A stretch of 64,000 nt of DNA from an uncultured Planctomycetia bacterium. Lineage in GTDB: Bacteria; Omnitrophota; Gorgyraeia; JABMRG01; JAFGKX01. The translations under genes were made by a program, and so were the position numbers. The stretch spans positions 17,441 through 81,440 of the forward strand of contig CAZMYR010000001.1 of NCBI GenBank assembly GCA_964570585.1, written 5' to 3'. Positions 11,801-64,000 of the stretch are shown in pieces; positions within the stretch are counted from its first letter, which is position 1; every line of letters begins with the position of its first letter. The notes under the pieces were generated by a model. The model saw nothing but the letters and a program-made list of their open reading frames with translations. It did no database searches and had not been told where the DNA came from.

Positions 11801-14800
11801 GCCCCAACCATAGGTATTACAGTTTACCCAATTAAGCAGGTCTGCTCTTGAGCCGGTGGTGATATCAGTCTGAGACATTTCAGTAACAACAGCGTCAGGA
11901 GTTGTGTCAACCATGATAGCTACTATGGCACCTTTTTCTCCTGCCTCGATATACTCTTCTGTAACCCGGGTGTTCCTGAGCTGCTTGGCAGGAGCAAAGG
12001 CATCACGGTTGATATTGCTTAATTTACCGGTTATAACATTAACATAGTTTTCACCGCGTGTATGATCCAAGGCTAATTTTGCACCTGGAGCTAATTGGAC
12101 ATACTGCATACTCCAGCCTGCCATCTCCCATTTTTCGGTGGCGTTTATCAGGCTTTCAGCCATAGTCTTGAATCTTATTGCTATTTTGCGCTCATCCTCC
12201 TCGGTTATCTTTGCATCAGGTGTTATTTTAGCCAAAACTACTGCTGGCATCTGTGAATTTCTCTCAAACATCATCTGTTTTCTATAGGTCTCGGCCATGC
12301 TTAGCTCATTATCGTCATTTACCCCTTGGAATTCCCTGATATCCGCCAAGGCAGGAGCGATAACACTTAATGTACCATTTTGGGCAAGAATAGCAGAAAT
12401 CTGAACAAAATTTATCTCTCCTTTCTTGTTGGCAGAACTATCATAAGGATTTAGAAAATCACCCGCACTATCTTTAGGGAATTTCTCCAAAGTACTGAAT
12501 ATATCTTTTGCTTTTCCCATAAAGAGTCCTACATCGTCGCAGCCAAAATCTAATTTTGCACCTTTTTTGCTGCCTATTACCCTTCCATTTTTATCTACCA
12601 TGATAGGAGCGTAGGGGTCCTTTTTATATGTAGTAGCTATGCTAAAGGAGACATCGCCTAAGGCTTGATGTATCATAGTAAGCCAAAGAACAGTCTCCGG
12701 ATTCAATACTGCCATATCTCCCCATACAACAAGTAGATCTCCATCAAATTGCGCTAAATTCTCCTTTGCAGAAAGTACTGCGTGGCCGTCACCTTTTATA
12801 TAGTCCTCAAAGACATATTCTGCATCAAACCCGCCTTTATCTAAAGCCTCTTTTATCTCTGCAAAATTTCCGCCTTTACCTTCTTTTCCTAATGCATCCC
12901 TCCATTGTTCGGAACGGACTACAACAACGGGTTTTTTATCTAAAAACGCTGTCTGTCTTAATACGTGATAGATTATAGGTTCGCCGCATACCTTCTGGAG
13001 AACCTTTGACTTCTTGTCTGTCATCCTGGTACCCAGGCCTGCAGCAGCAACAATAACCCGTACCGGCCTTTGAAGCTTAAATTCTGCTGAATCTTTTATA
13101 CCCAGGATATCAAGAGTTAACCTTCTAATAGTATCTTTATTCTTTTCATAATTAGCCCCATCCCTTATAAGGTCTCTTAAGACGCTCTTGGCTAAAAAGT
13201 TCCTTAATTCTGTTAGCTCTTTTTTAAATTCAGCTATAGAAGAAAAACCGCCTTTCGTGTCCTTGACTTTGTAGTGTAGCGCCAAGAACCTACTCTGTAT
13301 AAGCTTGTTTAAATCTGTGGCATTAACAAATTTCATCTTTTGTATAATATTTTCAATCTCGCCATAACCTGGCCGGGTGAAGAGGCCATAAATTAAGTAT
13401 TCCAGCTCACCGATGGGGTCAACTCGCATAACAGAATAATCTATTAAAAAAGGTGAACCATCGGGTTTTATTAAGATGTTTCTGGTGTTTATATTCCAAG
13501 TCCCGGGAACATCTTTGCCCTGCAGGTATGAAGCTACATCGGTTATATTTATAACTGTATCTATGAGCTCGATACCGCGATAACCCATAGCCCCTTCATT
13601 AATGCCCTCAAATTTCTCGCCAAAAGGTACACCTTCGGCATAAGGATAGACTATCGCCTTTGCATCTTCTAAGCCGGCCCATTTATCTTTACCGGCGCTC
13701 ATAACCACTGGCCTATATATATGGGGATAATCCTCCGGGACTCTTCGTAAAAATTCATATATCTCATCTGCTTGCCTTTCCATACCCTCTGTTTCTAACT
13801 TCTTAATAACAAAAAGCTGCCCACTTTGTTCATCTTCTGCTAACAAGAGTTTCTCGCTTCCGTGTATCGGCCCGATGATAATAAATGTTTTTTCACCCAT
13901 CTTGTTACACAGGGTCAGTTTTTCAACAACTCCCTCTTCTCCAGCCGAGCTGGCTTTGACCATAGTATCGGCGGCTGAAGCTACCTCGGATCTTTCAATT
14001 CTCTGTCTAACGCCCTTAAACTCATCCGTAGTCCTGGCAACATCCATAACATCTGGCCAGAAAAGAAGCGTTTCCCCGTCGCTTTGCATCTGTTTTCTTA
14101 CATCTTTTTCGACCTTTTCAATAAAGGCATCTTTCGTGCTATCATTTATTCCGCTCATATACCTTCTTTCATTTGGTTCTGGCATCTCATCAAATACAAT
14201 CTCTGTACCGTCTGCTAAGGTTATAGAATAACGCGTTTCCTGTTTCACCGCATCCCCATGCTTCGCTGGCATTTTGGTGGTTTTGATATCACTTCGTTTT
14301 ACGGTATGGGGAGGTCTGCTATCGTCTATTTCAAAGTAAACCACTCTGTCTTCTTTCTGCTTCACATCACCAACTAAATCCTCTATTATTATTACCGGCT
14401 TTAGCCTGATAATAGCTCCTGTTTGGTCTACTTCCATACGATATGTTGTCTCTACCGGATGTTTGGTGATTTTAGTGCCTTCTACTTTTTCCACCCCTGT
14501 TCTTGGTGGTAAAAATTCTACAACGAATTCGCCCGCAAGTATATTAAGGCTATCATGCAATTCTTTATTGCCATGTTTTAATGCCGCAGCGGCCTTCTTG
14601 GTAAGGGTGTTTATCCTTTCTATTGTCCTTGCCTGAAGGTTGTGTAGGGCCTCTTTGCGTTTGTCTGGAATCTCATAAATCTTCCCTTCTTCTATCATCT
14701 CTTTTCCAAGATACCTCATACGTTCTTTATAATCTACGCGGTCATCATATTTTTCCATAGCTTCGAATCTGTCCAGGGTTCTTCTTACCACCCTGTTTAA

Positions 14801-17800
14801 GATATGCCAATCTGCCATAGCGCTATGTTCCTTACGCACCTGTAGGGGTATATTGGGCCTTGTTGCGGTCTTTAATCTATGGTGTCCACCTACTGTCCTG
14901 GTCCATGTCATAAGCCGGCCTGTCACGACCCTTACCAGATAGTTAAAGTATGGCTCTTCTCTCCTGTACAGCTGGCCTATTGTTGGTATAGGAAAAACTG
15001 AATCATCAAAACTGAACATATTCATACACATAAAAATCCTTTTGGATAAAGTGGTATCTTCTTGCGGGTCAAGAAGTGCGGTAACAGCCTCTGGCCTTGC
15101 AAGATAGAGTACCTTAAGGGCCGCCTCCTGCAACATATCAGAATCTATGGCACCCCTTTCCAGAAATGAATCTATCTGAGCATCGGCTGATTTATCTCTA
15201 TCGTGATTAAAGTGGGTTGTTGCGCACTGATTCCTTAAAAAGCGAATCTCATCCACATTGCCTGTAAATACCGAGCCTGCAAAACCCCTCTTATCCTTAT
15301 CTACAATCATCGCTCCTGTATTTGGGTTTACTGCAAAGGCACCAAGCGCCCTATCTAATACGCCAAGATAATCCACTGTATATCTATCATATTCATATGT
15401 ATGATATTCTGGAAATTTTTTCTCTTTATCTTCTGGCTTATTATCAACATGGGCAAGTATCGCATCCTCTGATACTACAACCCGTTCAGGAAGTCCTGTA
15501 TCGAGTAAGGCATTAAATCGCGTAGTATTATCAACATTCTTTTGAACTATCTGTCCTGCCTTCTCTGGTATTAAGGCGGTAGTCTCCTTTTCCTCCGGGC
15601 TACTATATCCATAGTATATCCTTATAACATCTGTTACCTTCTTGGAAAGAGTTGGATGAGTTCTTAGATATGCTACAAAATCCGATTCAGACTTTATTTT
15701 TTGCTTAGCAGCAGTGTGTAATTCCTTGAAGAATTTTTTTCTCATATCCTTAACCTCTTGCCTTCTCTTTTCTAAAATATCATCAAGCACTTTCCTTTTG
15801 GCAACCCTCATAACCGGGAGAGAATCATCATCCACTGAAGCCATTCTGAGACCCATTGCAAGCATAATGGTAAAGTTTCTTATCCCAGATATATTAGAGG
15901 CAAACTGGTCAGCCAAAATTCTTTCCAGCTGTGGCCTAATAGAGTCTACATCCTTAAACTGGCGTAGAATATCTTCGCGCAACTTGTCCTGGCGCCAAAG
16001 ATCTGTATAACGTTCAGTAAGCGTATCGATTACCTTTTTTACGATGTTGTCTCTTACATCCCAATCGACATAGGTTATATTGAAACCTCTTTTTTTAAAA
16101 GTCTCAATTACCATCCTATCTAATTCCCCCCATTTCATAGCGCGTATATCCTTTGGTGTCTTTTTACCCCCAAAAAGGGTTTTATTTACCCATTCAACCT
16201 CTTCGTCTTTCATCGGCTCTGCCTTGGCTCCAGGACCTTTAGTGAGTACATTCGAGGTAACAGCTATAGGGATATTGCGGTGACCAAACTCATCTAGAAC
16301 TTCAGTTTGACGCTCCAATACTCTATATAATGCACTGGGTCTTCTATATGAAGGTATCCATAAGGGGCCCAGGGTTATATCTCGCGCGCGCGCCATAGTA
16401 GCTCCTTTTTTAATTAAACGCCTCGATTCATCTAAAGCTGTTTCTGCAAATTTCTTCATATATTTAGGGAGGTCTTCTGCAGCCAGCTCATAAAATACCC
16501 CTTTACCTCCTGCTACATCTGAAACAATAAGATAATCTTCAAGTGCGCTGGTAAGATTAAGATAGTCCGGGGCATAGCCATTTATATAGCCGTGATATCT
16601 TAATATGTCTTCATCATATATATAGTAATTGACACCCTCTGGCGTTTCTATTCTCTTGATATTAACCTTTTTGCCGGTCTTATAACCTATCACCCTTAAA
16701 AAGTAGAGAAAGTCCTTGCCAAAATCGGTTGGCTCATCTTCATCATTAAAAATCATCTTAATATCATCCTGAATAGCAGCAGGCCTTATGCCTAAAACTA
16801 CCTGCAGAAGAGGTGCATTGGCCTTTTCGAGTAAGAATCTCTTTATGGCTTTTCTGTTTTCGGGAACATTATCGGCAAAGGCCTTATTACTCACCTTAGT
16901 TTTATCATCTCTCAGCAGTCCGCTGGCAACATTAGATATTCTTCTTACATTATCGGTATATTCTATATCATCAAAAAGATAAGCCAATTTATCCCTGAGG
17001 GCATCAGCTGCCTCCCTAAGCCTGCTTCGTCCCGTTATAGTGGTTGGGTCGGTCTCTTCAATTGTCTTTATAGGCACAAAAGATCTATATCTGTCTATAA
17101 TAACCGGTATGTAAGGGAGGTTGAATGTAAAACCGGAGATGTTTCTTTCAATCTGAGCGCCCACATAGATAACAGGCCTTCCATGTTCATCTACATCTTT
17201 CTCCTCCTTTAAATTTATAAATGCGTGGGGTTCCTTCTTTGTAACCTGCTCAGTAATCTCTTCTATAGTAAGCTCTTTATCATAATTATCAGGCAGCTCA
17301 AACGTCTCCATAAGCCCATCTATGGAAAAGAGTATAGAACCGGTGTGGAAATAAGGAAAGTGAGTTCTTAATTGGTCTTTGTCTAATTCAGATACGTGCC
17401 TTTTAAATTCTTCTGTCATATCATTCTTATCAGCAATGACCATCTTACTTTCGCCTGTCTCCTTATCAATCGCTGTTAAAAGAAGCCCTCCTCTTTCATT
17501 TCTGTTTTCAGCAACGCCTACTAAAGCTACTGGGACCGGTCTACCATCCTCTCTCGCTTCCTCTATCTGCTCAGCCAAAAGACCCTTTAATTCTGCTGAT
17601 AACCTTCCGGCAGTATTATTCATATGGGCGTTCATCACAAAGTTTATATTGTCTCTTTTTAACTTTGCTAAAATACCGTTTAATATAAGCCACCTGACAA
17701 AATCCCAGTGCCCGGGAGGATTGGTTACTAATCTGCCATCTGAAAGCCTGAGCGGTTTTCCAATATGTTGTCTTTGGATAGCGATACCTCTGCGTAACGC

Positions 17801-18772
17801 CTCTAATTCTTCTTCGGAAATCTTTTCTTGCCGATAATCCTCCTCCTTTTGTTCAAGGTAGTGGATTAATATAGTTTCTGAGGGTGTAAATCTTATCTGT
17901 ATCCCCTGTTCAAATATCTCTATATCGTTGCGGTTATAGCCATAATGGTCATTCCTCTCCAAAATCTCTTTTATCATCTCTCCAGTTTCACCGCTCCCCA
18001 TGAAATATACTTTAACCCGGGCACTCTTATCTTTGGTTGCTTCTCTCAGTTCCTCTTGTGAACGTTTCGCTTCTGCTATCTTAAGCTGCACAAACCCATA
18101 AAGCTGGTCTGGATTATCCGAGTTTAATTCAGGTATAGCAAATACAAATCCGGCCCTCATCTCGCCTTTTGTCCGTGTGCTTAATCCTCCTGCAGAAGAC
18201 CCAAAAGACGCAGGTATTCTACTGCCACGTTCTCTGAGTTCATGCAGTCGCCTTTCTTCCATATTCATAATATCTATAGGGCCTCTCCTACCGGTGGGAT
18301 CTGTGGTTGGCGGCGATTTAAGTTCCATCGGCCTTCTTATATTAACATCTTCTACGTAGTGGGCCTTCTGGGCAAAGTTTCGCATCGCCTCAAATGTCGG
18401 TAGCTCAGTCTCAAAGAAATGAAACTCAAGTAAGTCCCGGGCCTGCTTAAGTATGCGCTGCGCTTGTTCCTTCTTACCCTGTTTCAGCGCCTGCTCAGCC
18501 AAATCAAGCTGGGTGTTGTATATATTGTATAACTTCCCGTGTAAATGCTCAGGAATAACAACATCTGGTTTTATTGGACGGTTACCGCTTGAACTACTCT
18601 TCAGAGCTGCTACTATTGGCGGCCTACCTTCAAAAACCCCGACTGAAGAAGGCCTCAGATGGTCCTGAAGAATCACTGTAGTATCTACAGGAGCTGCCCA
18701 TAAGGTATTGGTTATAGTAAATGTTATCGCTATACTCAAGTTTAAAACCTTCGCTAATATCTCTTTAATCAT
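8894..18772 (-). CDS. Giant secreted multidomain protein (3292 aa) containing an APH/anomeric-sugar-kinase-like module followed by a sugar-1-phosphate nucleotidyltransferase module, plus at least 7 copies of the K-S-S-S-A-G linker motif.
   Basis: ORF track entry. ATG at 18770-18772 with GAGGAGGA 5 nt upstream. N-terminus MIKEILAKVLNLSIAITFTITNTLWAAPV is signal-peptide-like. Stop TAA at 8894-8896. Confidence 0.85.
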   Translation of the reverse strand: MIKEILAKVLNLSIAITFTITNTLWAAPVDTTVILQDHLRPSSVGVFEGRPPIVAALKSSSSGNRPIKPDVVIPEHLHGKLYNIYNTQLDLAEQALKQGKKEQAQRILKQARDLLEFHFFETELPTFEAMRNFAQKAHYVEDVNIRRPMELKSPPTTDPTGRRGPIDIMNMEERRLHELRERGSRIPASFGSSAGGLSTRTKGEMRAGFVFAIPELNSDNPDQLYGFVQLKIAEAKRSQEELREATKDKSARVKVYFMGSGETGEMIKEILERNDHYGYNRNDIEIFEQGIQIRFTPSETILIHYLEQKEEDYRQEKISEEELEALRRGIAIQRQHIGKPLRLSDGRLVTNPPGHWDFVRWLILNGILAKLKRDNINFVMNAHMNNTAGRLSAELKGLLAEQIEEAREDGRPVPVALVGVAENRNERGGLLLTAIDKETGESKMVIADKNDMTEEFKRHVSELDKDQLRTHFPYFHTGSILFSIDGLMETFELPDNYDKELTIEEITEQVTKKEPHAFINLKEEKDVDEHGRPVIYVGAQIERNISGFTFNLPYIPVIIDRYRSFVPIKTIEETDPTTITGRSRLREAADALRDKLAYLFDDIEYTDNVRRISNVASGLLRDDKTKVSNKAFADNVPENRKAIKRFLLEKANAPLLQVVLGIRPAAIQDDIKMIFNDEDEPTDFGKDFLYFLRVIGYKTGKKVNIKRIETPEGVNYYIYDEDILRYHGYINGYAPDYLNLTSALEDYLIVSDVAGGKGVFYELAAEDLPKYMKKFAETALDESRRLIKKGATMARARDITLGPLWIPSYRRPSALYRVLERQTEVLDEFGHRNIPIAVTSNVLTKGPGAKAEPMKDEEVEWVNKTLFGGKKTPKDIRAMKWGELDRMVIETFKKRGFNITYVDWDVRDNIVKKVIDTLTERYTDLWRQDKLREDILRQFKDVDSIRPQLERILADQFASNISGIRNFTIMLAMGLRMASVDDDSLPVMRVAKRKVLDDILEKRRQEVKDMRKKFFKELHTAAKQKIKSESDFVAYLRTHPTLSKKVTDVIRIYYGYSSPEEKETTALIPEKAGQIVQKNVDNTTRFNALLDTGLPERVVVSEDAILAHVDNKPEDKEKKFPEYHTYEYDRYTVDYLGVLDRALGAFAVNPNTGAMIVDKDKRGFAGSVFTGNVDEIRFLRNQCATTHFNHDRDKSADAQIDSFLERGAIDSDMLQEAALKVLYLARPEAVTALLDPQEDTTLSKRIFMCMNMFSFDDSVFPIPTIGQLYRREEPYFNYLVRVVTGRLMTWTRTVGGHHRLKTATRPNIPLQVRKEHSAMADWHILNRVVRRTLDRFEAMEKYDDRVDYKERMRYLGKEMIEEGKIYEIPDKRKEALHNLQARTIERINTLTKKAAAALKHGNKELHDSLNILAGEFVVEFLPPRTGVEKVEGTKITKHPVETTYRMEVDQTGAIIRLKPVIIIEDLVGDVKQKEDRVVYFEIDDSRPPHTVKRSDIKTTKMPAKHGDAVKQETRYSITLADGTEIVFDEMPEPNERRYMSGINDSTKDAFIEKVEKDVRKQMQSDGETLLFWPDVMDVARTTDEFKGVRQRIERSEVASAADTMVKASSAGEEGVVEKLTLCNKMGEKTFIIIGPIHGSEKLLLAEDEQSGQLFVIKKLETEGMERQADEIYEFLRRVPEDYPHIYRPVVMSAGKDKWAGLEDAKAIVYPYAEGVPFGEKFEGINEGAMGYRGIELIDTVINITDVASYLQGKDVPGTWNINTRNILIKPDGSPFLIDYSVMRVDPIGELEYLIYGLFTRPGYGEIENIIQKMKFVNATDLNKLIQSRFLALHYKVKDTKGGFSSIAEFKKELTELRNFLAKSVLRDLIRDGANYEKNKDTIRRLTLDILGIKDSAEFKLQRPVRVIVAAAGLGTRMTDKKSKVLQKVCGEPIIYHVLRQTAFLDKKPVVVVRSEQWRDALGKEGKGGNFAEIKEALDKGGFDAEYVFEDYIKGDGHAVLSAKENLAQFDGDLLVVWGDMAVLNPETVLWLTMIHQALGDVSFSIATTYKKDPYAPIMVDKNGRVIGSKKGAKLDFGCDDVGLFMGKAKDIFSTLEKFPKDSAGDFLNPYDSSANKKGEINFVQISAILAQNGTLSVIAPALADIREFQGVNDDNELSMAETYRKQMMFERNSQMPAVVLAKITPDAKITEEDERKIAIRFKTMAESLINATEKWEMAGWSMQYVQLAPGAKLALDHTRGENYVNVITGKLSNINRDAFAPAKQLRNTRVTEEYIEAGEKGAIVAIMVDTTPDAVVTEMSQTDITTGSRADLLNWVNCNTYGWGEHFDNLAFYNLKGIEIINGEEKKVCYIQFWTAGQGVNCADHDHSELTKDTTFGEIHFCMRNGTGKGGMVYYNESGKPAYLPLPRGHAHGPFWGFDPETGKPVTTAGGVVAYGQHRWEGGGSFIELGKPNRYDLWAVFELVPEVAIIPVAGKSSSAGKIVRIGDVGIKVEDITRENLANNGLVFAHIKENFPFDNFEKLSREARSVGDISLNERMIQSMFEHTPFEITGCFRMPGIDNAYISFLKAELSGFADIQILMRIKGRRSLEAYIAHLTKEQMERIKDKPALAHNIAAQNVLERNIRLMAQIQESTKSSSAGAKEQKSVTEIFSSLLKTLHAINYIPEIPSAGDYTFRNMGANTRWSSVKIKQGKLIFLKSGIDTSAVIFGPGSLYMETDKPGFKIGHKWWEYKGDNPLVDVRIDKKGSIYAIVKQEVIAQLTEDWKSDYAAKYLPPSEDLPLTLVSELDTAAISKLLPKPISTSKSSSSGVILAGEEVKVIEPEILVRLALDIPMNDVRASRLLLLYNVLIGFKKQVSKLGYDQQFIKDAKLGQKGLLLLQCDDFNITLLSLKETEGAYILLYQVRDLQNMLEGFMPVAALVQKIGDKSAEAGIAILTGKQIVELQKQNLVAGPAPRKELLKRLPDAEKILVRRAGAKYTKAEKAYAKKVQAFAMDDMMVGREKSSDKPNKSSSAGNRALAELNRGLLNAENILLDALVKETTQVPGEVELLNDSLLTESLQKLTQLSAKATRLKVETTLTSAEEELIQLKIATQRSVIEFARVCAPIARIESEGTIIVDANAIPDIKQRMAVISMLKDHRLRDALEYALSFKDKGQVTKKTQIVLLADVNRQTLNRKKTILISDKQQLADVKLFKIGVKKDDILLPMAELIAVARGLLSLNEDNFNQLFPAIKKMYQQYTQNTIEAIVEQALREGTWSVFELIITTLPGVEKLSQEEIERLQRQAWAALIAA
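12380..13080 (-). other. Sugar-1-phosphate nucleotidyltransferase (NTP_transferase fold) module inside the 3292-aa protein
   Basis: VIVAAAGLGTRM verified at 13021-13074. This is the G-x-G-T-R glycine-rich loop of GlmU, RmlA and MurU-type nucleotidyltransferases. Downstream LLVVWGDMAVL fits the family. Boundaries are approximate. Confidence 0.55.
13380..13700 (-). other. Protein-kinase-like / aminoglycoside-phosphotransferase-fold sugar kinase module inside the 3292-aa protein
   Basis: Translation PGTWNINTRNILIKPDGSPFLIDYSVMRVDPIGELEY (verified at 13451-13510). It resembles the HGDxxxxNxxxxxxxxxxxIDxE catalytic/Mg loop of APH, choline-kinase and AmgK-type kinases. Boundaries are approximate. 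Confidence 0.4.
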
Positions 18773-25007: not shown

Positions 25008-25122
25008 CCCACCAGCATCAAAAGATGCTGGTGGGCTGGGGGCTAAAGCCATGTTATATGGCTTTACTTTATTCCGTCATTGCGAGCCCTTGACGTCTTC
25101 GATGTCAAGGGCGAAGCAATCT
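25008..25122. promoter_or_regulatory. Two strong hairpins downstream of the giant gene's stop: GCCCACCAGCATC-AAAA-GATGCTGGTGGGC (25008-25037) and an imperfect ~20-bp stem around CCCTTGACGTC...GATGTCAAGGG (25078-25122)
   Basis: A perfect 13-bp inverted repeat is seen directly. No clear T-run follows, so a terminator or RNA-processing role is inferred only. Confidence 0.4.
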
Positions 25123-57106: not shown

Positions 57107-57815
57107 CTGACCCTAACCCCCTTGGAGCATTAGTCCCCTTAGAACTTAAATCTGAATATCGGCCTGTTTTTAGGGTAAGCCTTCAAAAGATTTATGATGT
57201 TTTTTTCACATTTTTTAAAGACTTTTTTAACTGGCGTAATAAGTATACCATATAAATGCCTGATTGTCAAGGGTTCCTGTGATTTTTTTGCTTGGTCTGC
57301 CCTGCTAAGAAAACTCAGCTTTTGGCAGGTCCGGAGATGCTGTTTAGAAGCTTTTCAAATGCTGTTTATCGACTGAACTTTAATTAATCTTTGTTATAGC
57401 TTATATATTGTATTGCAAATATTATAAGCCCAAACCTCACTGATGTCAAGAATTTTTTTAAAAAATACAGACGTTTCCCAACTCAATCGGGAAACTGCCC
57501 CATTTTCAATCGGGAAAGTGTACCCTGCCATGATACACCAAAACCGAGGAGCATTATGGAGCGAGACATTAGGAATTTTTTGCTATACAAAACGCCATAA
57601 GCGAAGCAATCACCTATGAGCAGTGATAGCATTTTTTTAGCATTTTACGAACGAGAATGAGCGAGCCCCGAAGGTTCGGGGCGAGCGAAGGAAAGTTTGT
57701 GTTTGAGCCCGAACACATCATAAGATGTGAGGGCGAGTTAAATTTTCCCGAAGTGAGTAAAATGCGTGCCAAAGGCAAAAAATGCGTGCTGCGAGTAGGT
57801 GATTGCTGAGCACGT

Positions 57816-57837
57816 AACCGTATCATAACCGTATCAT
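57816..57837. repeat. Perfect tandem direct repeat 2 x AACCGTATCAT
   Basis: Seen directly. A second direct pair AAAATGCGTGC is at ~57759-57769 and ~57779-57789. A hairpin GCCCCGAAGGTTCGGGGC is at 57665-57682. Confidence 0.5.
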
Positions 57838-57889
57838 TGTCGTAACTCATTGTTTTTATTAATGATAAAAGAGCTCAAAAAAACCGGCA

Positions 57890-57917
57890 TCTCAAAATTC
57901 TATATAGAATTTTGAGA
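57890..57917. promoter_or_regulatory. Perfect 28-bp palindrome TCTCAAAATTCTATATAGAATTTTGAGA (candidate dimeric-repressor operator)
   Basis: Its reverse complement is identical to itself. It lies in the ~1-kb spacer between the divergent giant gene and the brnTA operon. Confidence 0.45.
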
Positions 57918-58074
57918 CAATTGTCCTAAAAATTCAAGTATTTTTAAAGAATTGCTCATCGGGATACTCCTTCTCGGTAAAATTATGGGAAAAGGTGAAA
58001 ACGCCCGCACGGTAGCATTAAGGTTAAGTTAACTTTTGTGCCAGGAGTTAGGGGGGGGTATCAGGTTGAGAATA

Positions 58075-58100
58075 AAAAAATTAAAATTAAAATTAAAATT
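58075..58100 (+). promoter_or_regulatory. (AAAATT)n A-tract array immediately upstream of the -35 box (UP-element-like)
   Basis: aaaaaattaaaattaaaattaaaatt. It is preceded by a G8 homopolymer at 58051-58058. Confidence 0.35.
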
Positions 58101-58104
58101 GTTG

Positions 58105-58133
58105 TTGACAAAGGGCACACATTGTGTTATATT
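58105..58133 (+). promoter_or_regulatory. Sigma70-type promoter TTGACA-17 nt-TATATT driving brnTA
   Basis: -35 box at 58105-58110 and -10 box at 58128-58133, with consensus spacing. Confidence 0.55.
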
Positions 58134-58438
58134 TATATGCATTGAGGTATTATACGTGGAATGATGAAAAAAATAAAAAGTTAATCGTAGAACGAAATAT
58201 CTCTTTTGAAGAAATAATTTTCTATATTGAAAAAGGTTGTTTGCTTGATACTTTAGACCACCCAAACAAGAAAAGATATAAGAGGCAACGCATATTTGTG
58301 GTGAGAGTAAAAAATTATGTTTACCTTGTACCTTTTGTTGAGAAAGAGAAAAACATTTTTTTAAAGACAATTATTCCTAGTCGTAAGGCTACGCGAATAT
58401 ATTTAAAGGAGGATAAAAAAAATGGCCAAACTAGATAA
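58124..58438 (+). CDS. brnT: BrnT-family (DUF497) ribonuclease toxin
   Basis: WNDEKNKKLIVERNISFEEIIFYI ... IFVVRV ... KTIIPSRKATRIYLKE matches BrnT hallmarks (WD..K...N..KH.ISFEE and RIISARKAT). The track start is GTG at 58124, which overlaps the -10 box. An in-frame TTG at 58142 is the more likely, leaderless start. Stop TAA at 58436-58438. Confidence 0.75.
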   Translation: MLYLYALRYYTWNDEKNKKLIVERNISFEEIIFYIEKGCLLDTLDHPNKKRYKRQRIFVVRVKNYVYLVPFVEKEKNIFLKTIIPSRKATRIYLKEDKKNGQTR

Positions 58439-58694
58439 AAAAGAAAAAGCAATCCTTAAATCCTATGAGAAGGGAGAGTGGCGGTCAGTAAGGAACTTAA
58501 AATCAAAATTGAAAGATTATAAGATGTACGCAAGGGCAACTCTTAAAAAAGATAAACGAATAAATATTAGAATACCTTCACAGGATTTAGAAGGAATTCA
58601 AAGAATAGCTATTGAGGAAGGGCTTCCTTACCAAACTTTTATAACAAGCATTCTTCATAAATATGTTACAGGAAGGCTTAGGAAGGCCGGCTAA
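58422..58694 (+). CDS. brnA: BrnA-family antitoxin
   Basis: AAAGGAGGA lies 8 nt upstream of the ATG. The start overlaps the brnT end by 17 nt. KRINIRIPSQDLEGIQRIAIEEGLPYQTFITSILHKYVTG is close to the BrnA consensus (RISIRL...DLE.IK..A.EEGIPYQTLI.S.IHKYV.G). Toxin-first gene order is typical of BrnTA. Confidence 0.8.
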   Translation: MAKLDKKEKAILKSYEKGEWRSVRNLKSKLKDYKMYARATLKKDKRINIRIPSQDLEGIQRIAIEEGLPYQTFITSILHKYVTGRLRKAG

Positions 58695-58729: not shown

Positions 58730-59100
58730 AACTTCTATTATATCTCAAATGGTCCTGGAGGCCTTGACAGTCAACTACCCCACGCCTAAAGGTGGAGGGC
58801 TTGTGAGAATAAGCCTGGTTGACTAGGGGGCATTGAAAGATGCAGAAGTTAAGAGAAAGAAGGATAACCAACACACCTACGGTTATTACGCACGACCGTA
58901 GCAACTGTGGTCTGTCATTAAACAGCCCTGAGGGTAGGGACAGTGTGGCAGGCTTAAAAACCTCTCTTAACAGCCCCGATGCGTCTCTAACTGCGAGTCC
59001 CGCCCTTTTACAAAAGGGCGGGACGAGAGGACACGCAGGACAGAACCCGAGGGTATCTGTCGTTTACCCCCACACCAAAAGTTTTGGTGTGGGGGTTTAT
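58730..59100 (+). ncRNA. Candidate omega-RNA (OMEGA guide/scaffold RNA) upstream of, and overlapping, the iscB start
   Basis: Strongly structured. Perfect 13-bp hairpins GTCCCGCCCTTTT/ACAAAAGGGCGGGAC (58997-59024) and CCCCCACACCAAAAG/TTTTGGTGTGGGGG (59067-59095). The track's 5' extension of the iscB ORF (58840-59088) translates to low-complexity, non-protein-like sequence. The extent is approximate. Confidence 0.4.
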
Positions 59101-60315
59101 GTCCTCAGTAAAAAGGGCAAGCCACTCATGCCCTGTTCGCCAAGAAAGGCAAGAGTGCTTCTCAAAGAGACCAAGGCAAGGGTTGTAAAGAGGGCTCCCT
59201 TCACAATAAAGCTTAATATCGCCACGGGAGAAGCAGAGCAACCGATTACTCTTGGTGTTGACAGCGGATACAACTCATTGGGCTTATCAGCAGTATCAAA
59301 AGATAAAGAGCTTTATAGAGCTCAAGTAAGGCTAAGAGAAGACTTGGTAAAACTTAATTCAGAACGAAGGCAGTATCGCCGGGGGAGGAGATACCGCAAA
59401 ACATGGTACAGAAAGCCCAGATTTCTTAACCGAAAGAAACCCCCAGGATGGTTGGCACCTTCCATCCAGCACAAATTGGACTCACATATCAAATTAATCA
59501 CCAAGGCCAAAGAGATACTGCCCATTTCAAAGATTAGTATTGAAGTGGCAGCATTTGACATCCAAAAGATTAAGAACCCTGACATTGAAGGCGAGGGTTA
59601 TCAAAAAGGCAAACAGGCGGGATTCTGGAATGTAAGGGAGTACGCACTTCACCGGGATAACCACCAGTGTCAGCACTGTAATGGCAAATCCAAATCCTCG
59701 GTATTGGAGCTACACCATATCATATCAAGACAGACAGGAGGAGACAGACCTGAAAATCTGATAACTTTATGTTCTATCTGCCACGATAAGGTATCAAAAG
59801 GCCAATTAGAACTTAAAGCCGAACCATCCAAGGGATTCAAAGCTGAAACCTTTATGTCAACAGTTAGATGGAAGTTGATTAATAAGCTGCGAGACTCTGG
59901 TAATATGGTAACACACACTTATGGTTATGTAACAAAAAGCAAGAGGATAGAGTTGGGGATACCAAAAAATCACACCAACGATGCCTTTGTGATAGCAGGT
60001 GGGACTACTCAGAAAAGGACAACATCGGAAGATTTCATCAAACAGGTCAGAAGGAGTAACCGTAAGTTGTTTAAAGGAGACAGGAGTCAGATAAGGAATA
60101 CGGCCGAGAGGTTTGTCTGTGGATTTCAGAGGTTTGATAAAGTGCTATACAATGGTGTGGAGTGCTTCATTTTTGGCAGAAGAAAAACAGGCTATTTTCA
60201 TCTAAGAAAATTGGATGGAACTAAAATTCATTCTTCAGCAAAACAAACAAAGCTAACTCTGCTTGAGAGCGCAAAAACTTTACTGATAGAAAGAAGGCTG
60301 GCTCTCCTCCCCTGA
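59089..60315 (+). CDS. iscB: IscB RNA-guided nuclease (PLMP domain, split RuvC with inserted HNH)
   Basis: The proposed GTG start at 59089 gives MGVYVLSKKGKPLMPCSPRKARVLL, the PLMP motif. Other motifs: RuvC-I LGVDSGYNSLGLSAV; Arg-rich bridge helix RRQYRRGRRYRKTWYRKPRF; RuvC-II ISIEVAAFD; HNH CQHCNG...LELHHI...NLITLCSICH; RuvC-III NHTNDAFVIAGG. The track ORF is 58840..60315; stop TGA at 60313-60315. Confidence 0.75.
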   Translation: MGVYVLSKKGKPLMPCSPRKARVLLKETKARVVKRAPFTIKLNIATGEAEQPITLGVDSGYNSLGLSAVSKDKELYRAQVRLREDLVKLNSERRQYRRGRRYRKTWYRKPRFLNRKKPPGWLAPSIQHKLDSHIKLITKAKEILPISKISIEVAAFDIQKIKNPDIEGEGYQKGKQAGFWNVREYALHRDNHQCQHCNGKSKSSVLELHHIISRQTGGDRPENLITLCSICHDKVSKGQLELKAEPSKGFKAETFMSTVRWKLINKLRDSGNMVTHTYGYVTKSKRIELGIPKNHTNDAFVIAGGTTQKRTTSEDFIKQVRRSNRKLFKGDRSQIRNTAERFVCGFQRFDKVLYNGVECFIFGRRKTGYFHLRKLDGTKIHSSAKQTKLTLLESAKTLLIERRLALLP

Positions 60316-60407: not shown

Positions 60408-61535
60408 ATGATTTACATATGGAAGCAAAAAAAATGGCCTCAGTTAAAATGGCAAAGCGATAAACTGCTGCCATCTTTAAGCCAGGCACGCTTCCTTCAA
60501 GGGGAACTGTTAAGCAAGATCCGTTCTCTGGGCTTAAACCAGGGCAAGGAACCAAGTGCTGAAATACTGGTAGAGGAGACTGTTAAAACCGCTGCTATTG
60601 AAGGAGTCCGGCTGGATAAGGATGCTGTGCGTTCATCCGTAGCGAGAAGATTAGGCCTGCCTACAGCAGGTTTAAAATCACCAGATAAAGACGCAGAAGG
60701 CCTTGTCAGCGTGCTCCTGGATGCTACTAGAAATTATAAAAAACCACTTACTGTCAAACGCTTAAAATCATGGCAGGCGGCACTATTTCCGACAGGTTAC
60801 TCAGGGCTTTCTAAGATAAGGGTAGGAAAATGGCGTGGAAAAAGTCCGATGCAAGTAGTCTCAGGACCTATTGGTCGTAAGAGAGTTCATTTTGAGGCCC
60901 CGCCATCAGAAAGAATAGATACAGAAATAAAAAAGTTCATAAAATGGTGGCAGAAACCCCCAAAGAACTTAGACAGCTTATTAAGGGCAGGCATTGCCCA
61001 TTTCTATTTTGTTACCATTCATCCTTTTGAAGATGGCAATGGCCGTATAGCCAGGGCATTAACAGATATGGCCTTATCTCAGGATGAGAATCTTCCAAAG
61101 AGGTATTATTCTCTTTCAACCAGTATAATGGCAGGAAGAAAGGCATATTACGATATCTTGGAGAAATGCCAAAGAGGCACGCTTGATATAACAGAATGGC
61201 TGTTGTGGTTCCTGAAATTCTATTTAAAGGCAATTGAGGAATCAGAAAAGGCTATTCAAAAATCATTGCAAAAGGCAGAATTTTGGCAAAAGCATGCTCA
61301 AACCAACCTGAATAATAACCAACGGAAAGTAATTAATCGCTTGCTTGATGCCGGTCCAAGTGGCTTTATAGGAGGCTTAACCACGCGAAAATACGTAGCA
61401 ATGACAAAGACAAGCAGGGCCACGGCTTATAGGGATATCTCTGATCTGGTAAGAAAGAAGATACTGGCTCGCTCTAAAGCTAAAGGCAGAAGCGTCTCCT
61501 ACGAGCTCATCTTTGTTGAAAAATTACAGACGTAA
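60408..61535 (+). CDS. fic: Fic/DOC family protein (AMP-transferase-type Fic domain with DUF4172-like N-terminus and C-terminal wHTH-like tail)
   Basis: The Fic active-site motif HPFEDGNGRIARAL (HxFx[DE]GNGRxxR) is present. The N-terminus MIYIWKQKKWPQLKW is typical of DUF4172-Fic proteins. GAGGTG lies 6 nt upstream of the ATG. Confidence 0.8.
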   Translation: MIYIWKQKKWPQLKWQSDKLLPSLSQARFLQGELLSKIRSLGLNQGKEPSAEILVEETVKTAAIEGVRLDKDAVRSSVARRLGLPTAGLKSPDKDAEGLVSVLLDATRNYKKPLTVKRLKSWQAALFPTGYSGLSKIRVGKWRGKSPMQVVSGPIGRKRVHFEAPPSERIDTEIKKFIKWWQKPPKNLDSLLRAGIAHFYFVTIHPFEDGNGRIARALTDMALSQDENLPKRYYSLSTSIMAGRKAYYDILEKCQRGTLDITEWLLWFLKFYLKAIEESEKAIQKSLQKAEFWQKHAQTNLNNNQRKVINRLLDAGPSGFIGGLTTRKYVAMTKTSRATAYRDISDLVRKKILARSKAKGRSVSYELIFVEKLQT

Positions 61536-61621: not shown

Positions 61622-62806
61622 TTATTTTTCTTTTTTCTTTTCTTGCACAAATTTCCTCTGAAGATAATCTACGACTTGTTTAAACTTGTAAAGCCTGTCG
61701 GCATCCTCATCGGGAATATCAATGCCAAGCTCTTCTTCAAAGGTCATTGCGATTTCAATGCTGGCTAAAGAATCCACACCTAAATCCTTTACAAGATGGG
61801 CATTATCATGGATTAAGTCTTTTGATATGCCTAATTGTTCCGCGATAATTTTTCTGGCTACATCCGGAATATCTTCTTTCGTTATCTCTTTTTTCTTTTC
61901 TTCCGGCGGTTTAGGAGACGCTTTATATTTTAGTCCGAGCGCCGGTATTCTAACAGCTTTATCTGTCTTAAAATATAAGTTGTTTTTTATGGCAGTGTCT
62001 CTTACTAATCTACCGAGTTTATCTAACCTAACATCAACTGCCGGAGGAAGATTTGAGAGATTAATCCCTTCTGTCTTCTCGTCCTCTGGTTTATTACTGT
62101 AAACAATTATATCTTTCGGTTTATCGTCCGATTTAGTTATGGCTTTATATATCTCACTTTTAGCCCCTAGCACTATTTGATTCCCTAATACAATATCAGG
62201 CCTGAAATTGTGAAGCTCTTTTTTTATGTCTTCTTCTACCCCCCCTATTTTGCTTGAATCAAATGTTTTGACGCCTACGAACAACATCTGCATTGAGTAT
62301 TCACCGCCGCATTTTTCTTTACTCTCAAAATATATGTTTTTAGGAACAAAGTAGTTAAGAGCAAGGTCTATAAACAAAAGTTTCGCCTTCGGCATTATAT
62401 AAGGATCATTATATATAGGGATTTCTTCTTTTTTAATTATTCTTCTGCCTTCTAAAACATCTTTTGCTGTCTCAACTATAGTATTGGGGCTAAATGGTTT
62501 TGCCATAAAGGCATCATATTTAAGCCCCTTTACTTTTTCTTCATATTGTTCACCATATCCTGTTAAAATTACAACTTTTGTTTTTGGGTACTTTTCGTTT
62601 ATTATCTCTAAAACACCAGGGCCGTCTAAACCTTTCATTTTCATATCTAATATGACAAGGTCGATACCTTTTGATTCTAGTTTCTTCACGGCTTCTTCGC
62701 CGGATAAGGCAATAGCTACACTATGGCCTTCTTTTGAAAAGAAATACTCAAGGGTAGATGTAAGTTCTTTTTCATCGTCTATAACAAGGATATTTTCATT
62801 TGGCAT
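61622..62806 (-). CDS. Response regulator receiver domain fused to an unknown middle domain and a C-terminal acyl-carrier-protein (phosphopantetheine-binding) domain
   Basis: REC domain: ILVIDDE...DLVILDMKMKGLDG...KPF. C-terminus: IAEQLGISKDLIHDNAHLVKDLGVDSLASIEIAMTFEEELGIDI is a classic ACP helix-II DSL motif. No DNA-binding output domain was recognised. Confidence 0.7.
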   Translation of the reverse strand: MPNENILVIDDEKELTSTLEYFFSKEGHSVAIALSGEEAVKKLESKGIDLVILDMKMKGLDGPGVLEIINEKYPKTKVVILTGYGEQYEEKVKGLKYDAFMAKPFSPNTIVETAKDVLEGRRIIKKEEIPIYNDPYIMPKAKLLFIDLALNYFVPKNIYFESKEKCGGEYSMQMLFVGVKTFDSSKIGGVEEDIKKELHNFRPDIVLGNQIVLGAKSEIYKAITKSDDKPKDIIVYSNKPEDEKTEGINLSNLPPAVDVRLDKLGRLVRDTAIKNNLYFKTDKAVRIPALGLKYKASPKPPEEKKKEITKEDIPDVARKIIAEQLGISKDLIHDNAHLVKDLGVDSLASIEIAMTFEEELGIDIPDEDADRLYKFKQVVDYLQRKFVQEKKKEK

Positions 62807-62825: not shown

Positions 62826-64000
62826 TTATATAGCTGGTAAAGTTATTTTAAAATATGTTCCTTTGCCATATTCCGATTCAACGTCAATTGTTCCTTTATG
62901 GTTTTCTATCATTGCTTTTATCACAGATGAGCCTATGCCCGTGCCTTTTTCGGTTGTAGCTTTGGTAGTAAAAAATGGTAAAAAAAGCTGGTCCGATTCC
63001 TCTTTTGTCATACCAATACCATTATCGGATAACTCTATACGCCAGAGATTGTTATCTGTAAAAGCCTTTATTTTTGTTTCAGGTATATAATCTTTTTGGT
63101 TTTGTTTCTTTTGTTGTTCCGCATCATGAGCGTTGTCTAAGAGATTAAAGAATATATCCTGAAGTTGCGCCATATCACCTTTTATTTTAAGGGGCGTTTT
63201 CTCTACATCGGTTTTGAGATTAAGTTCTGTAATATCGAATTTGTATGATAAAAGTTCAATAGTTGCAGTTATAACCTCATCGAGATCGACTAGCTTATAT
63301 TTTGTCTCCTTCCGGGAAAATACTGTTAAGTGTTTGGTGATGTTGCCTCCTAAATTAGCGTTTTCTGCAATGCTTTTCATTGCTTTTTCGGCTCTTACCA
63401 AGAAAGTTTTATTCTCATTGGATAAACTTACTTTTTTCATTCCATCCTGCATAATATCAAGTGCCTCTTCTGCTTTTGCCCAGATGGCCTGAAAACGGTT
63501 GTTAATTTGATGCCCCATCATAGAACCCATCTGTCCTATAGAGCGAAGCCGGTGTTCATGAAACTGCTGGGCTAGAGATTTTCCGGTTTCTTCATAAAAT
63601 ATGGCATTTTCAATGGCTAAAGCTGCCTGATTAGCCAATACCTGAAATACTGCTAAGTCATCTGATGTATACATATCGCCTGAGAGTTTCTTGCCCATTG
63701 CCAGGAAGCCTATTAACTCATTTTGGATGAAACTAGGAATTATTATATCAGCTTGCATGTCTTTCATGTTTTTAGCTATGTTCTTTCCCTCCGGCATAAG
63801 AGCTGCCTCATCATATATTAAAATGTCCCTATGGCCTTTAAGCCATTTTATTAAGGGTATGTTGCTTTGTATCTTCCCTGCAGGGAGATTTGATATATTT
63901 TGTCTGTTTCTTTTTGCCCTTAGGTTATATTCGTCTGCTTCGGGATTTCGTAGATATATATAAGCATGACTAACACCAATGGCTTTGCTCATTACGCGTA
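62826..64000 (-). CDS. GAF-domain sensor histidine kinase (HisKA + HATPase_c); may extend beyond the window end
   Basis: H-box FHEHRLRSIGQMGSMMGHQINN, N-box LLDNAHDA, G-boxes DNGIGM and GTGIGSSVI. The first ATG is at 63990-63992 and no stop lies between it and 64000. The gap to the downstream regulator is 19 bp. Confidence 0.75.
   Translation of the reverse strand, partial: RVMSKAIGVSHAYIYLRNPEADEYNLRAKRNRQNISNLPAGKIQSNIPLIKWLKGHRDILIYDEAALMPEGKNIAKNMKDMQADIIIPSFIQNELIGFLAMGKKLSGDMYTSDDLAVFQVLANQAALAIENAIFYEETGKSLAQQFHEHRLRSIGQMGSMMGHQINNRFQAIWAKAEEALDIMQDGMKKVSLSNENKTFLVRAEKAMKSIAENANLGGNITKHLTVFSRKETKYKLVDLDEVITATIELLSYKFDITELNLKTDVEKTPLKIKGDMAQLQDIFFNLLDNAHDAEQQKKQNQKDYIPETKIKAFTDNNLWRIELSDNGIGMTKEESDQLFLPFFTTKATTEKGTGIGSSVIKAMIENHKGTIDVESEYGKGTYFKITLPAI

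Follow-up and report, generated by a model that had tools for sequence, protein, structure and literature searches.

The 64-kb window, which is the whole stretch of DNA analysed here, contains a giant ORF of 10,643 aa on the minus strand (25175-57106) and a BrnT/BrnA pair on the plus strand (58124-58694). These are separated by a spacer of 1017 nt (57107-58123), measured from the start of the giant ORF to the BrnT/BrnA pair. The spacer was compared with a set of about 20 related Omnitrophota loci (designated by L-numbers), which were retrieved by the N-terminus of the giant protein at 55-93% identity. The closest relatives, in which the same giant gene is preceded by the same promoter P1, are L030 (93%) and L003 (88%); L003 has masked runs of N, and its gene truncations are not fully certain.

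An earlier note on this DNA had described the spacer as a region dense in repeats and palindromes. All the motifs that it listed are present at or near the positions given there: a perfect 28-bp palindrome (57890-57917), a tandem of two AACCGTATCAT units (57816-57837), a direct pair of AAAATGCGTGC (57759-57769 and 57779-57789), two TCAATCGGGAAA(C/G)TG boxes (57483-57497 and 57506-57520, previously placed at about 57482-57519), a GC hairpin GCCCCGAAGGTTCGGGGC (57665-57682) and a G8 homopolymer. Their density exceeds chance, as judged from 1000 first-order Markov simulations of this 1017-nt sequence. Neither a palindrome of at least 28 bp nor a tandem unit reaching the length of the longest one present (12 nt, from an AAAATT array, which exceeds the 11-mer) was found in any of the 1000 simulations; at least five local direct repeats (10 nt or longer) appeared in one of them, and at least five perfect hairpins (stem of 7 bp or longer) in eight. 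The relatives share just two of these motifs, the 11-mer tandem and the TCAATCGGGAAA hairpin, and treating the listed motifs as parallel functional sites is not warranted; the two promoters of the giant gene were missing from the list. An origin of replication, as the divergent genes and the repeats could have suggested, was also considered and rejected: no DnaA box with one mismatch or fewer occurs in 57107-58123.

The first of these promoters, P1, lies on the minus strand at 57242-57270 and has the form TTGACA-17-TG-g-TATACT, with an extended -10 element (11/12 consensus positions plus TG in the promoter scan). The string CTTGAC-N17-TGnTATACTT is invariant in all 11 aligned loci, its position falls between -117 and -164 from the ATG in 13 loci, and with its further occurrence in L087, L089, L093 and L096 the promoter is conserved in every relative that could be checked. 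The second, P2, is a perfect consensus match on the same strand (TTGACA-17-TATAAT, 57421-57449, 12/12). It is found in five loci, the relatives with an equivalent position being L004, L007, L005 and L087, and it is absent from L030 and L003. Both promoters have sigma-70 hexamers at a spacing within 16-18 bp, and both recur upstream of orthologous genes. On this comparative basis, two tandem sigma-70-type promoters probably drive the giant gene, with P1 universal and P2 restricted to some lineages. Possible sigma-54 promoters were discarded on inspection by eye, as the spacing between GG and GC is wrong in the TGGCAC-like strings.

Between P2 and P1 (57271-57420, minus strand) are two copies of TAAACAGCAT and a hairpin CCTGCC..GGCAGG. 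The part at 57271-57329 is conserved with L030 and L003, and the fold of the P2-P1 spacer is no better than that of shuffled sequence (z of -0.8 and +0.5). We infer the transcription start of P1 from the position of its -10 element, which gives the giant gene a predicted 5' UTR of about 130 nt (57107-57235, minus strand). This leader includes a conserved A-rich block, TTAAAAAAGTCTTTAAAAAATGTGAAAAAAACAT, at 57230-57197; across the 11 loci, at protein identities of 55-93%, TTAAAAAAG and AT.TGAAA.AAAG show no or almost no variation. The Shine-Dalgarno region AAGGGGGTTAGGG is located at 57111-57123 on the minus strand, directly ahead of the ATG at 57106-57104, and its AAGGGGG is kept in the 11 aligned loci.

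Upstream of P2, on the same strand, the pattern scan identified an intrinsic terminator, T2 (57460-57495), consisting of GTTTCCCGATTGAGTTGGGAAAC followed by the U-tract tail GTCTGTATTTTTT. Its 10-bp stem and U-tract correspond to a Rho-independent terminator, and the hairpin is strand-specific, with -16.1 kcal/mol on the minus strand against -9.5 kcal/mol on the plus strand. T2 is orthologous in L030 and, with a broken T-run, in L003, and analogous terminators stand upstream of P2 in L004 and L007. The paired TCAATCGGGAAA boxes, formerly proposed as operators, are accounted for by this element: box 2 is T2 itself, and box 1 (57506-57520, minus strand) is a partial direct duplicate of the 5' arm of T2. 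L030 and L003 have about 60 extra nt between the two boxes, so that the window has a deletion there. T2 would shield the promoters of the giant gene from upstream transcription.

The origin of the next segment becomes apparent from the relatives, where an operon of the type TolC-MFP-TPR-RND1-RND2, recognized by Pfam matches, directly precedes the giant gene in the same orientation. The window retains a relic of the 3' end of the AcrB-type gene RND2 (57839-57868, minus strand), a 30-nt piece with 75-84% blastn identity to the RND2 3' ends of L030, L003, L004 and L007; by tblastn, no RND sequence was found in the window beyond this relic. Similar losses are seen in the nearest genomes: L003 retains only a C-terminal fragment of RND2, beside a tRNA-Thr and a tuf fragment, and L030 retains about 130 bp, beside a MntA/HepT module. 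The efflux operon would have been replaced in this genome, and 57544-57868 would be what is left of its 3' flank.

Most of this flank is occupied by an imperfect palindrome of about 200 nt without strand preference (57606-57806, basal arms 57789-57806 and 57606-57623), which folds at -80 kcal/mol. The AAAATGCGTGC pair and the GC hairpin, both previously taken as operators, are pieces of this single structure. A TGCTCA direct repeat flanks the structure, which is missing from L030, L003 and L007; at the same place, L004 and L091 carry other palindromes, unrelated in sequence. The long hairpin may represent fast-evolving, DNA-level inverted duplications within the relic. Its segment at 57617-57806 (about 190 nt) could also be read as a non-autonomous MITE- or REP-like element in a TGCTCA target, with the GC hairpin as a nested mini-palindromic element. 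Relative to L030 the block sits exactly between two copies of TGCTCA; in addition, L008 has two palindromic elements of about 50 nt, CCCCGAACC..GGTTCGGGG, with 4-5-bp duplications, one of which is missing from the orthologous L078, and the hairpin CCCCGAAGGTTCGGGG of the window has CGAG on both sides. However, such an insertion is improbable, since no second copy of the block turned up in the 64-kb window or the 1.3 Mb of related loci; the block also lacks terminal inverted repeats, and its left end is an inverted copy of flanking host sequence. Furthermore, its first 40 nt or so align with L091, which fits an ancestral segment that L030 and L003 lost by deletion between short direct repeats. 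By the same alignment, the beginning of the long hairpin may be ancestral and selected rather than junk.

Next to the RND2 relic lies the tandem 11-mer, here called M1, which on the minus strand reads as an A followed by two copies of ATGATACGGTT (57816-57838). Sixteen identical units were counted in seven genomes (the window, L030, L003, L004, L007, L088 and L091/92), with two or three in each, and a head-to-tail spacing of 11 bp, within the 10-11 bp of response-regulator and iteron-type sites, is found in all seven. Extra units occur at 12 or 15 bp (L088, L091), and a degenerate further one, AAGATACGGAA, was noted in L007. M1 is the sole invariant block of a five-way alignment and the sole deeply conserved motif among those listed, and its flanks cannot be aligned between L004, L007 and the clade of the window. 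No other tandem array was detected elsewhere in the related loci or in viral contigs, although isolated single 11-mers occur (an exact copy is located at 37268 of the window). Because M1 shows no substitution while the adjacent RND gene decayed, it has presumably been selected for something other than the pump. No listed motif other than the tandem 11-mer behaves as a cis element under selection, which makes this 11-mer the one candidate operator; our best guess from these patterns is a protein-binding iteron, a head-to-tail array for a DNA-binding protein that would act on the giant-gene locus.

Several observations weigh against M1 as a regulator array. Perfect conservation is atypical for transcription-factor sites, and no conserved DNA-binding regulator gene lies nearby. 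The distance to the promoters is large as well: in the window M1 lies 366-545 bp upstream of P2 and P1, and across the genomes the distance from M1 to P1 varies between 236 and 545 bp, which is beyond the approximately 100 bp expected for a promoter-proximal site. L089, L093 and L096 still have RND2 and the giant gene but lack the array, which is therefore not essential to that gene. In L088 and L091, the spacing of the third unit breaks helical phasing and keeps the frame of a tiny ORF, which hints at a role in RNA or translation. Three further leads on M1 were dropped: the equal distance from M1 to P2 in the window and L004 (366 bp) is taken as a coincidence, as the component lengths differ; a near-copy at +245 of the giant gene codes for conserved NRII residues; and a downstream complement of M1 (GTATCAT) is found in the window and L030, and not in L004 or L091.

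Two other conserved motifs follow M1 on the minus strand. M3 (TTCGCTTATGG, 57595-57605) has a TTCGCT common to the window, L030, L004, L003, L007 and L091, just past the first hairpin. M4 (GCAAAAAATTCCTAATGTCTCGCTCCATAATGCTCCTCGG, 57544-57583) is conserved and locus-specific: it is also present in L030, L004 and L091, the last with two direct copies and an inverted partial copy (by eye), with no further occurrence in the 1.3 Mb of related loci. A small ORF in M4 was rejected, given that the reading frames differ between genomes. Taken together, M1, M3 and M4 could tentatively be regarded as an undescribed cis-regulatory module at the junction of RND and giant gene in one subclade of Omnitrophota, though on the comparisons made here this is rather doubtful. 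If true, the module would serve either as an array bound by a regulator dedicated to the giant gene or as an attenuator with a MIRL mini-ORF, the latter coupling read-through from the efflux operon to giant-gene expression, and it would have stayed intact even where the pump genes decayed.

The segment from M1 to T2 (57838-57460, minus strand) could also be one transcribed RNA element, namely a small RNA from the RND 3' UTR or a leader-peptide attenuator in which a mini-ORF in the tandem 11-mer (ATG ATA CGG TTA TGA, encoding MIRL) controls whether transcription passes T2 into the giant gene. The same order of M1, M3, M4 and terminator in several genomes is in line with this idea, as is the strand specificity of T2. 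In L004 and L007 the RND2 stop codon is the TGA inside unit 1 of M1, with an ATGA overlap, and the 12- and 15-nt spacings of the extra units in L088 and L091 preserve the frame (MIRL, MIRFMIRL, MIRFMMIRL); the frame argument comes from two related sequences, however, and has a chance probability of about 1/9. Against an RNA element, the window and L030 have neither an upstream gene nor a recognisable promoter for its transcription, a terminator-like palindrome precedes the segment in the window, the mini-ORF has no Shine-Dalgarno sequence, and ORFs extending past the last ATG are not conserved.

The earlier note had likewise offered a small structured RNA as an alternative, which the structural evidence does not favour. 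The Rfam covariance scan of 57107-58123 gave nothing better than E of about 1, the scan of the orthologous spacers returned no match at E<=0.1, and no tRNA or tmRNA was detected in the window. In the window, the two strands fold equally well across the segment that holds the long hairpin (z of -7.5 and -7.2), and the fold between M1 and T2 is not conserved among the relatives, with z values of about -7 in L004, -1.5 in L030 and +0.5 in L003. A fold that is equal on both strands and not conserved speaks for DNA palindromes and against an RNA gene, and a transcribed element spanning M1 to T2 is therefore unlikely.

The distal block (57869-58123) has no counterpart in any related locus and occurs only in this genome. 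It adjoins an island with brnTA, IscB and Fic genes, in which IscB and a HEARO RNA were identified. Neither the 1.3 Mb of loci nor the viral contigs contain a relative of the 28-bp palindrome. Together with the CCGG and T7 that follow it on the minus strand, it makes up a terminator-like element (57877-57919) 9 nt from the synteny breakpoint, with a fold of -16.2 kcal/mol, an AT-rich stem in which 3 of 14 pairs are G-C, and a T7 run that begins 4 nt past the stem. A 19-codon ORF, MSNSLKILEFLGQLSQNSI, is encoded on the same strand (57900-57972), with AAGGAG as Shine-Dalgarno sequence 7 nt upstream and a stop codon at the midpoint of the palindrome; this ORF may be a gene fragment. The palindrome with its T-run would act, if at all, as a minus-strand terminator for this short ORF or gene fragment. 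The dif consensus core is ATAA-N6-TTAT, and a dif/Xer site was excluded for the palindrome, which has the 11-6-11 layout, inner arms of ATTC/GAAT, no match to the consensus and no related sequence in any locus. In these loci, 11-6-11 palindromes are common terminators.

The palindrome is also about 190 bp upstream and does not overlap the brnTA promoter, as the operator of a type II TA system would. The promoter region of brnT is predicted at 58066-58133 on the plus strand and comprises TTGAGA-16-TAAAAT (58066-58093), (AAAATT)4 (58077-58100) and TTGACA-17-TG-TATATT (58105-58133). From its position between the -35 and -10 elements of the latter, we infer a candidate BrnA operator in the small palindrome ACACA-T-TGTGT (58117-58127, plus strand). 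An exact look-up of the BrnA protein returned two contigs only, both identical to the window, and the nearest non-identical BrnT homologues are at most 71% identical.

With a probability that we put at about 0.6 from these sequence comparisons, the spacer is made up of four blocks that differ in their histories, rather than being one multi-operator control region. The proximal 345 bp (57107-57449) would be the working control region of the giant gene; 57460-57495 would be a Rho-independent terminator on the giant-gene strand; 57544-57868 would be the remnant 3' flank of the RND efflux operon; and 57869-58123 would be DNA brought by, or created by, the brnTA/IscB/Fic island. Besides the 11-mer array, the region consists of ordinary parts, namely promoters and terminators together with a decayed operon junction and a mobile-island edge.

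The earlier proposal, which assigns a transcription-factor operator to each of these motifs (palindrome, direct pairs, boxes and hairpin), with joint regulation of the 32-kb gene, holds in so far as the spacer does contain the control region of that gene, promoters included, and in that the motif density is beyond chance expectation. However, it is very unlikely as a whole, because no listed motif is placed at a giant-gene promoter. The motifs sit 200-650 bp upstream of P1, past a terminator; the boxes make a hairpin and then a T-run; and L030 and L003 retain the giant gene and P1 without the 28-bp palindrome, the AAAATGCGTGC pair, the GC hairpin or G8. The palindrome and G8 in particular fall within about 255 bp that all relatives lack, beside a mobile island. 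The G8 tract (58051-58058, plus strand) is long enough to slip, yet a slipped-strand phase-variation switch for brnTA or the giant gene can hardly be expected from a tract that lies neither inside an ORF nor between a -35 and a -10 element (a weak -35-like hexamer lies 8 nt downstream of it, and a strong one 47 nt downstream), has the same length in three of three assemblies (the window, L001 and L002) and sits in the unshared distal block; it has no evident role.

We know of no published account of how the giant genes of Omnitrophota are transcribed, and a text search found no mention of promoters in two papers on these genes. A conserved promoter and 5' UTR have now been placed for one giant-gene family, and the giant gene normally stands directly downstream of a TolC-MFP-RND operon. 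The promoter, the 5' UTR and the operon context represent starting points for metatranscriptomic or heterologous-expression work, while the invariant 11-mer array provides a clean, testable candidate regulatory site.

In comparison with known systems, the long hairpin resembles REP/MITE-type elements as a long imperfect intergenic palindrome with short direct repeats at its ends and with related mini-palindromes in L008. It differs from them in that no multi-copy family was detected and different genomes have different sequences at the same position. The segment between M1 and T2 recalls leader-peptide attenuators (erm/cat, trp-type): both have a short ORF, then hairpins and an intrinsic terminator ahead of a gene, and the stop/start overlap (ATGA) is a further likeness. 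Unlike these attenuators, it has no Shine-Dalgarno sequence and no antiterminator pairing, box 1 being a direct and not a complementary copy of the terminator arm, and the giant gene has its own promoters downstream of the terminator.

M1 itself, with two or three head-to-tail units at 11-bp periodicity, is comparable to direct-repeat arrays such as the OmpR/PhoB-type boxes of winged-helix response regulators, ribbon-helix-helix sites, and plasmid iterons or parC-type centromeres. Unlike OmpR/PhoB-type or iteron arrays, M1 is invariant at all 11 positions in 16 of 16 units, lies 236-545 bp from the nearest promoter without a linked regulator gene, and has extra units at 12 or 15 bp. The closest parallel for the proximal part is the arrangement of tandem sigma-70 promoters with an upstream insulating terminator that is found in many bacterial operons: the hexamers, the spacing and the TG motif agree, a hairpin with a U-tract stands upstream on the same strand, and the elements are conserved across orthologues. 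What sets this locus apart from such operons is that its promoters were recognized from sequence in an uncultured phylum, that a single 32-kb gene would be driven by them, and that the 5' UTR of this gene is unusually A-rich and conserved.

The spacer at 57107-58123 has a 10,643-aa ORF on one side (minus strand, 25175-57106) and the BrnT/BrnA pair on the other (plus strand). It is a mosaic of ordinary elements, in which two predicted promoters and a 5' UTR are joined by terminators, the flank of a decayed operon and the border of a mobile island; one strongly conserved 11-mer array stands out among them. Every motif listed in the earlier note was found in the sequence: the perfect 28-bp palindrome (57890-57917), the tandem AACCGTATCAT pair (57816-57837), two copies of AAAATGCGTGC (57759 and 57779), two TCAATCGGGAAA(C/G)TG boxes (57483-57497 and 57506-57520), the GC hairpin (57665-57682) and the G8 tract (58051-58058). 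A 28-bp palindrome and a tandem unit equal to the longest observed were each reached in 0/1000 Markov simulations, and at least five local direct repeats in 1/1000. The dense operator array proposed from these motifs is not supported, and none of the motifs falls within the proximal block next to the giant gene.

For comparison, Omnitrophota genomes and metagenome contigs were recruited by the N-terminus of the giant protein, with identities of 93% (L030), 88% (L003, CP070655.1), 79% (L087), 73% (L004) and 69% (L007), and many further loci at 55-63%. Loci L088, L089 and L091-L098 were recruited via the RND efflux-pump gene preceding the giant gene in relatives. All were oriented so that the giant gene reads on the plus strand, and are therefore compared with the minus strand of the window.

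As predicted from sequence and its conservation, the proximal block, with its promoters, 5' UTR and SD, is the real control region of the giant gene. A promoter scan identified P1 (TTGACA-17-TG-g-TATACT, minus strand, 57270-57242), in which CTTGAC-N17-TGnTATACTT is invariant in an 11-way alignment; P1 lies at -117 to -164 relative to the ATG in 13 loci and is also carried by L087, L089, L093 and L096. Downstream of it, conservation extends to an A-rich block, TTAAAAAAG..AT.TGAAA.AAAG (window 57230-57197), and to the SD AAGGGGG. The second promoter, P2, is a perfect consensus on the minus strand (57449-57421) with counterparts in L004, L007, L005 and L087; it is lacking from L030 and L003, the nearest two relatives. 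Sigma-54 promoters were checked by eye in the region and dropped.

The paired boxes, previously taken as operators, belong instead to a terminator-like element, T2, in which GTTTCCCGATTGAGTTGGGAAAC is followed by GTCTGTATTTTTT on the minus strand (57495-57460). Its RNA fold reaches -16.1 kcal/mol on the minus strand versus only -9.5 kcal/mol on the plus strand, a difference due to G-U pairs. The hairpin also occurs in L030, and in L003 with its T-run broken; in L004 and L007 the corresponding position, immediately upstream of P2, is taken by other terminator-like hairpins. Box 1 (57506-57520) duplicates part of the T2 5' arm in direct orientation, and the approximately 60 extra nt between the boxes in L030 and L003 indicate a deletion between repeats in the window. 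At the other end of the giant gene, about 140 nt downstream of its stop codon, a perfect 11-6-11 palindrome, CCCACCAGCATCAAAAGATGCTGGTGGG (25008-25035), is probably its terminator.

Upstream of the giant gene, and on its strand, L004 and L007 carry OEP(TolC)-HlyD/MFP-TPR-RND1-RND2; an RND2 immediately before the giant gene is likewise seen in L006, L009, L010, L022, L062, L089, L093, L094 and L096. This operon is decaying throughout the clade of the window. The window has no RND gene, just some 30 nt (57839-57868) similar to the RND2 3' end; L030 retains about 130 bp of RND2, beside a MntA/HepT module and an AbrB-like gene (the latter read from sequence alone), and in L088 RND2 is broken into two ORFs. 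In L003, whose locus contains masked N runs and calls for caution, RND2 is reduced to its C-terminal 693 aa behind recG, tRNA-Thr and a 198-aa tuf fragment; at 6500-7416 of the same masked locus, a strong promoter, tRNA-Thr(GGT) and the N-terminal EF-Tu fragment adjoin the N-terminally truncated RND gene, which marks a rearrangement scar in this, the nearest complete genome. Separately, RND1 is extended at its C-terminus by about 150-290 aa (L004 2654-6235, L007 2751-6398, L006 2669-6607). In each of the three genomes the extension gives a weak DeoR-like winged-helix HTH match (E 5e-5 to 6e-4), and it occurs with or without the 11-mer array; the fusion of a membrane pump to a DNA-binding-like domain would be unusual.

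The tandem 11-mer, M1, has the unit ATGATACGGTT, present twice each in the window, L030, L003 and L004, twice with a degenerate AAGATACGGAA in L007, and three times in L088 (spacing 12 and 11) and L091/L092 (spacing 15 and 11), giving 16 units in 7 genomes with 0 substitutions. Its flanks cannot be aligned among the L004, L007 and window lineages. No other tandem array of the unit was found across roughly 1.3 Mb of related loci or in viral contigs; single 11-mers exist, such as an exact copy within the giant gene at 37268. M1 is missing from L087, L089, L093, L096 and every relative at ≤63% identity. Its placement relative to RND2 varies: the RND2 stop codon is the TGA within unit 1 in L004 and L007, and RND2 ends 30-40 nt earlier in L088 and L091. 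That M1 is perfect where RND2 has decayed (window, L030, L003) points to a function that does not depend on the pump. In the window, M1 is flanked on both sides by minus-strand terminator-like sites and no promoter is recognisable between them, which favours a DNA-level role, and from this context a putative head-to-tail protein-binding array is proposed. Against it, P1 is far off at a variable distance (236-545 bp), a linked regulator gene is absent, no position varies at all, and the 12/15-bp spacings leave a mini-ORF open (MIRL*, MIRFMIRL*, MIRFMMIRL*). This frame keeps alive a role at the RNA or translation level, although the argument comes from two related sequences only. Pairing of M1 with downstream complements was dropped, as it is not conserved. 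The distance from the array end to the P2 -35 is exactly 366 bp in both the window (57816->57449) and L004 (9336->9703); the intervening sequences are largely unrelated and their component lengths differ, and the equality is treated as coincidence.

After M1 come M3 (TTCGCTT.TGG, window 57605-57595) and M4 (AAAATT(T/C)CTAATGTCTCGCTC..AATGC.CCT, window 57583-57544), in an order kept in several genomes. Among the related loci compared, M4 recurs only in L030, L004 and L091, the last with two direct copies and, as judged by eye, a partial copy in inverted orientation; it is non-coding, since its reading frames are not conserved. Between M1 and M3 the window holds an imperfect palindrome of about 200 nt (57606-57806, -80 kcal/mol) that includes the GC hairpin and the AAAATGCGTGC pair, which base-pairs with AAAATGC repeats of the opposite arm. 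It is missing in L030, L003 and L007, and relative to L030 it is placed exactly between two TGCTCA copies; palindromes of unrelated sequence occupy the same position in L004 and L091. A MITE origin of the block is possible, given that L008 has two ~50-nt CCCCGAACC..GGTTCGGGG elements with target duplications, but no second copy of the block was found in the window or in the related loci, and its first ~40 nt can be aligned with L091. The L008 elements themselves (9377-9425 and 9629-9679; CCCCG(A/T)ACCAAAT...ATTTGGTTCGGGG, 4-5-bp flanking duplications), the second of which breaks into a gene intact in the orthologous L078, look like a small MITE family in Omnitrophota. The alternative of a single structured RNA, also raised in the earlier note, finds no support in the fold z-scores (forward/reverse) of six loci: -7.5/-7.2 in the window, -6.6/-6.3 in L004, -4.1/-5.9 in L091, -3.5/-2.0 in L007, -1.5/-1.0 in L030 and +0.5/-0.1 in L003. 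The structure is thus neither conserved nor strand-specific, and the hairpins are read as recurrent DNA-level inverted duplications and deletions rather than as an RNA gene. Known RNA families, tRNA/tmRNA, oriC and a dif site were tested for and dropped. Elsewhere in the window, five DnaA-box-like 9-mers (≤1 mismatch to TTATCCACA) in 480 bp (15049-15528) lie inside a 3292-aa ORF (8894-18772, minus strand) and are probably a coding repeat, not an origin.

The distal block (57869-58123) is unique to the genome of the window, and upstream of 57868 no match to any relative was found. The 28-bp palindrome lies 9 nt from the synteny breakpoint, forms an AT-rich hairpin of -16.2 kcal/mol and is followed on the minus strand by CCGG and T7; an ORF of 19 codons with a strong SD (AAGGAG, 7-nt spacing) ends at its centre. 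Together they look like a gene fragment with its terminator, or a fold-back from rearrangement. The G8 tract is outside any ORF or promoter spacer and has equal length in the identical contigs L001 and L002. At the right end, the brnT promoter region contains two promoter-like sites (58066-58093 and 58105-58133) and an (AAAATT)4 array; a small palindrome lying between the -35 and -10 is a candidate BrnA operator. At the beginning of brnT (58124-58164), the annotated GTG start (58124) falls on the -10 of the top promoter match; as most BrnT homologues measure 93-98 aa, translation probably begins at TTG 58142 instead, and the mRNA would then be near-leaderless.

Beyond, the upstream space is filled by brnTA, a HEARO RNA with IscB and a Fic/DUF4172 gene. 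The HEARO (IscB omega-RNA) match (58770-58991; 119.7 bits, E 1.5e-25) runs into the beginning of a 491-aa ORF, identified as IscB by its RRXRR and HNH domains, with both lying in 58770-60315. Two metagenome contigs, independent of each other, break off at 58759 and 58981, at this element or within it, which fits a repeated mobile element breaking assemblies. IscB is followed by the Fic/DUF4172 gene (60408-61535) and, on the minus strand, by a response regulator with an unusual fusion of receiver and phosphopantetheine-binding (ACP-like) domains (61622-62806) and a GAF histidine kinase (62826-63992); no part of this block is common to relatives.

Across L003, L004, L006, L007, L009, L010, L022, L062, L089, L093, L094 and L096, a same-strand TolC-MFP-TPR-RND-RND operon within 75-700 bp is the usual upstream neighbour of the giant-gene family, which suggests that the pump and the giant protein are functionally connected. 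Conserved secretion loci upstream of Omnitrophota giant genes are reported in the literature, and a text search of two papers on these genes found no mention of promoters. The promoter assignment for the giant gene and the M1 array are new but modest findings.
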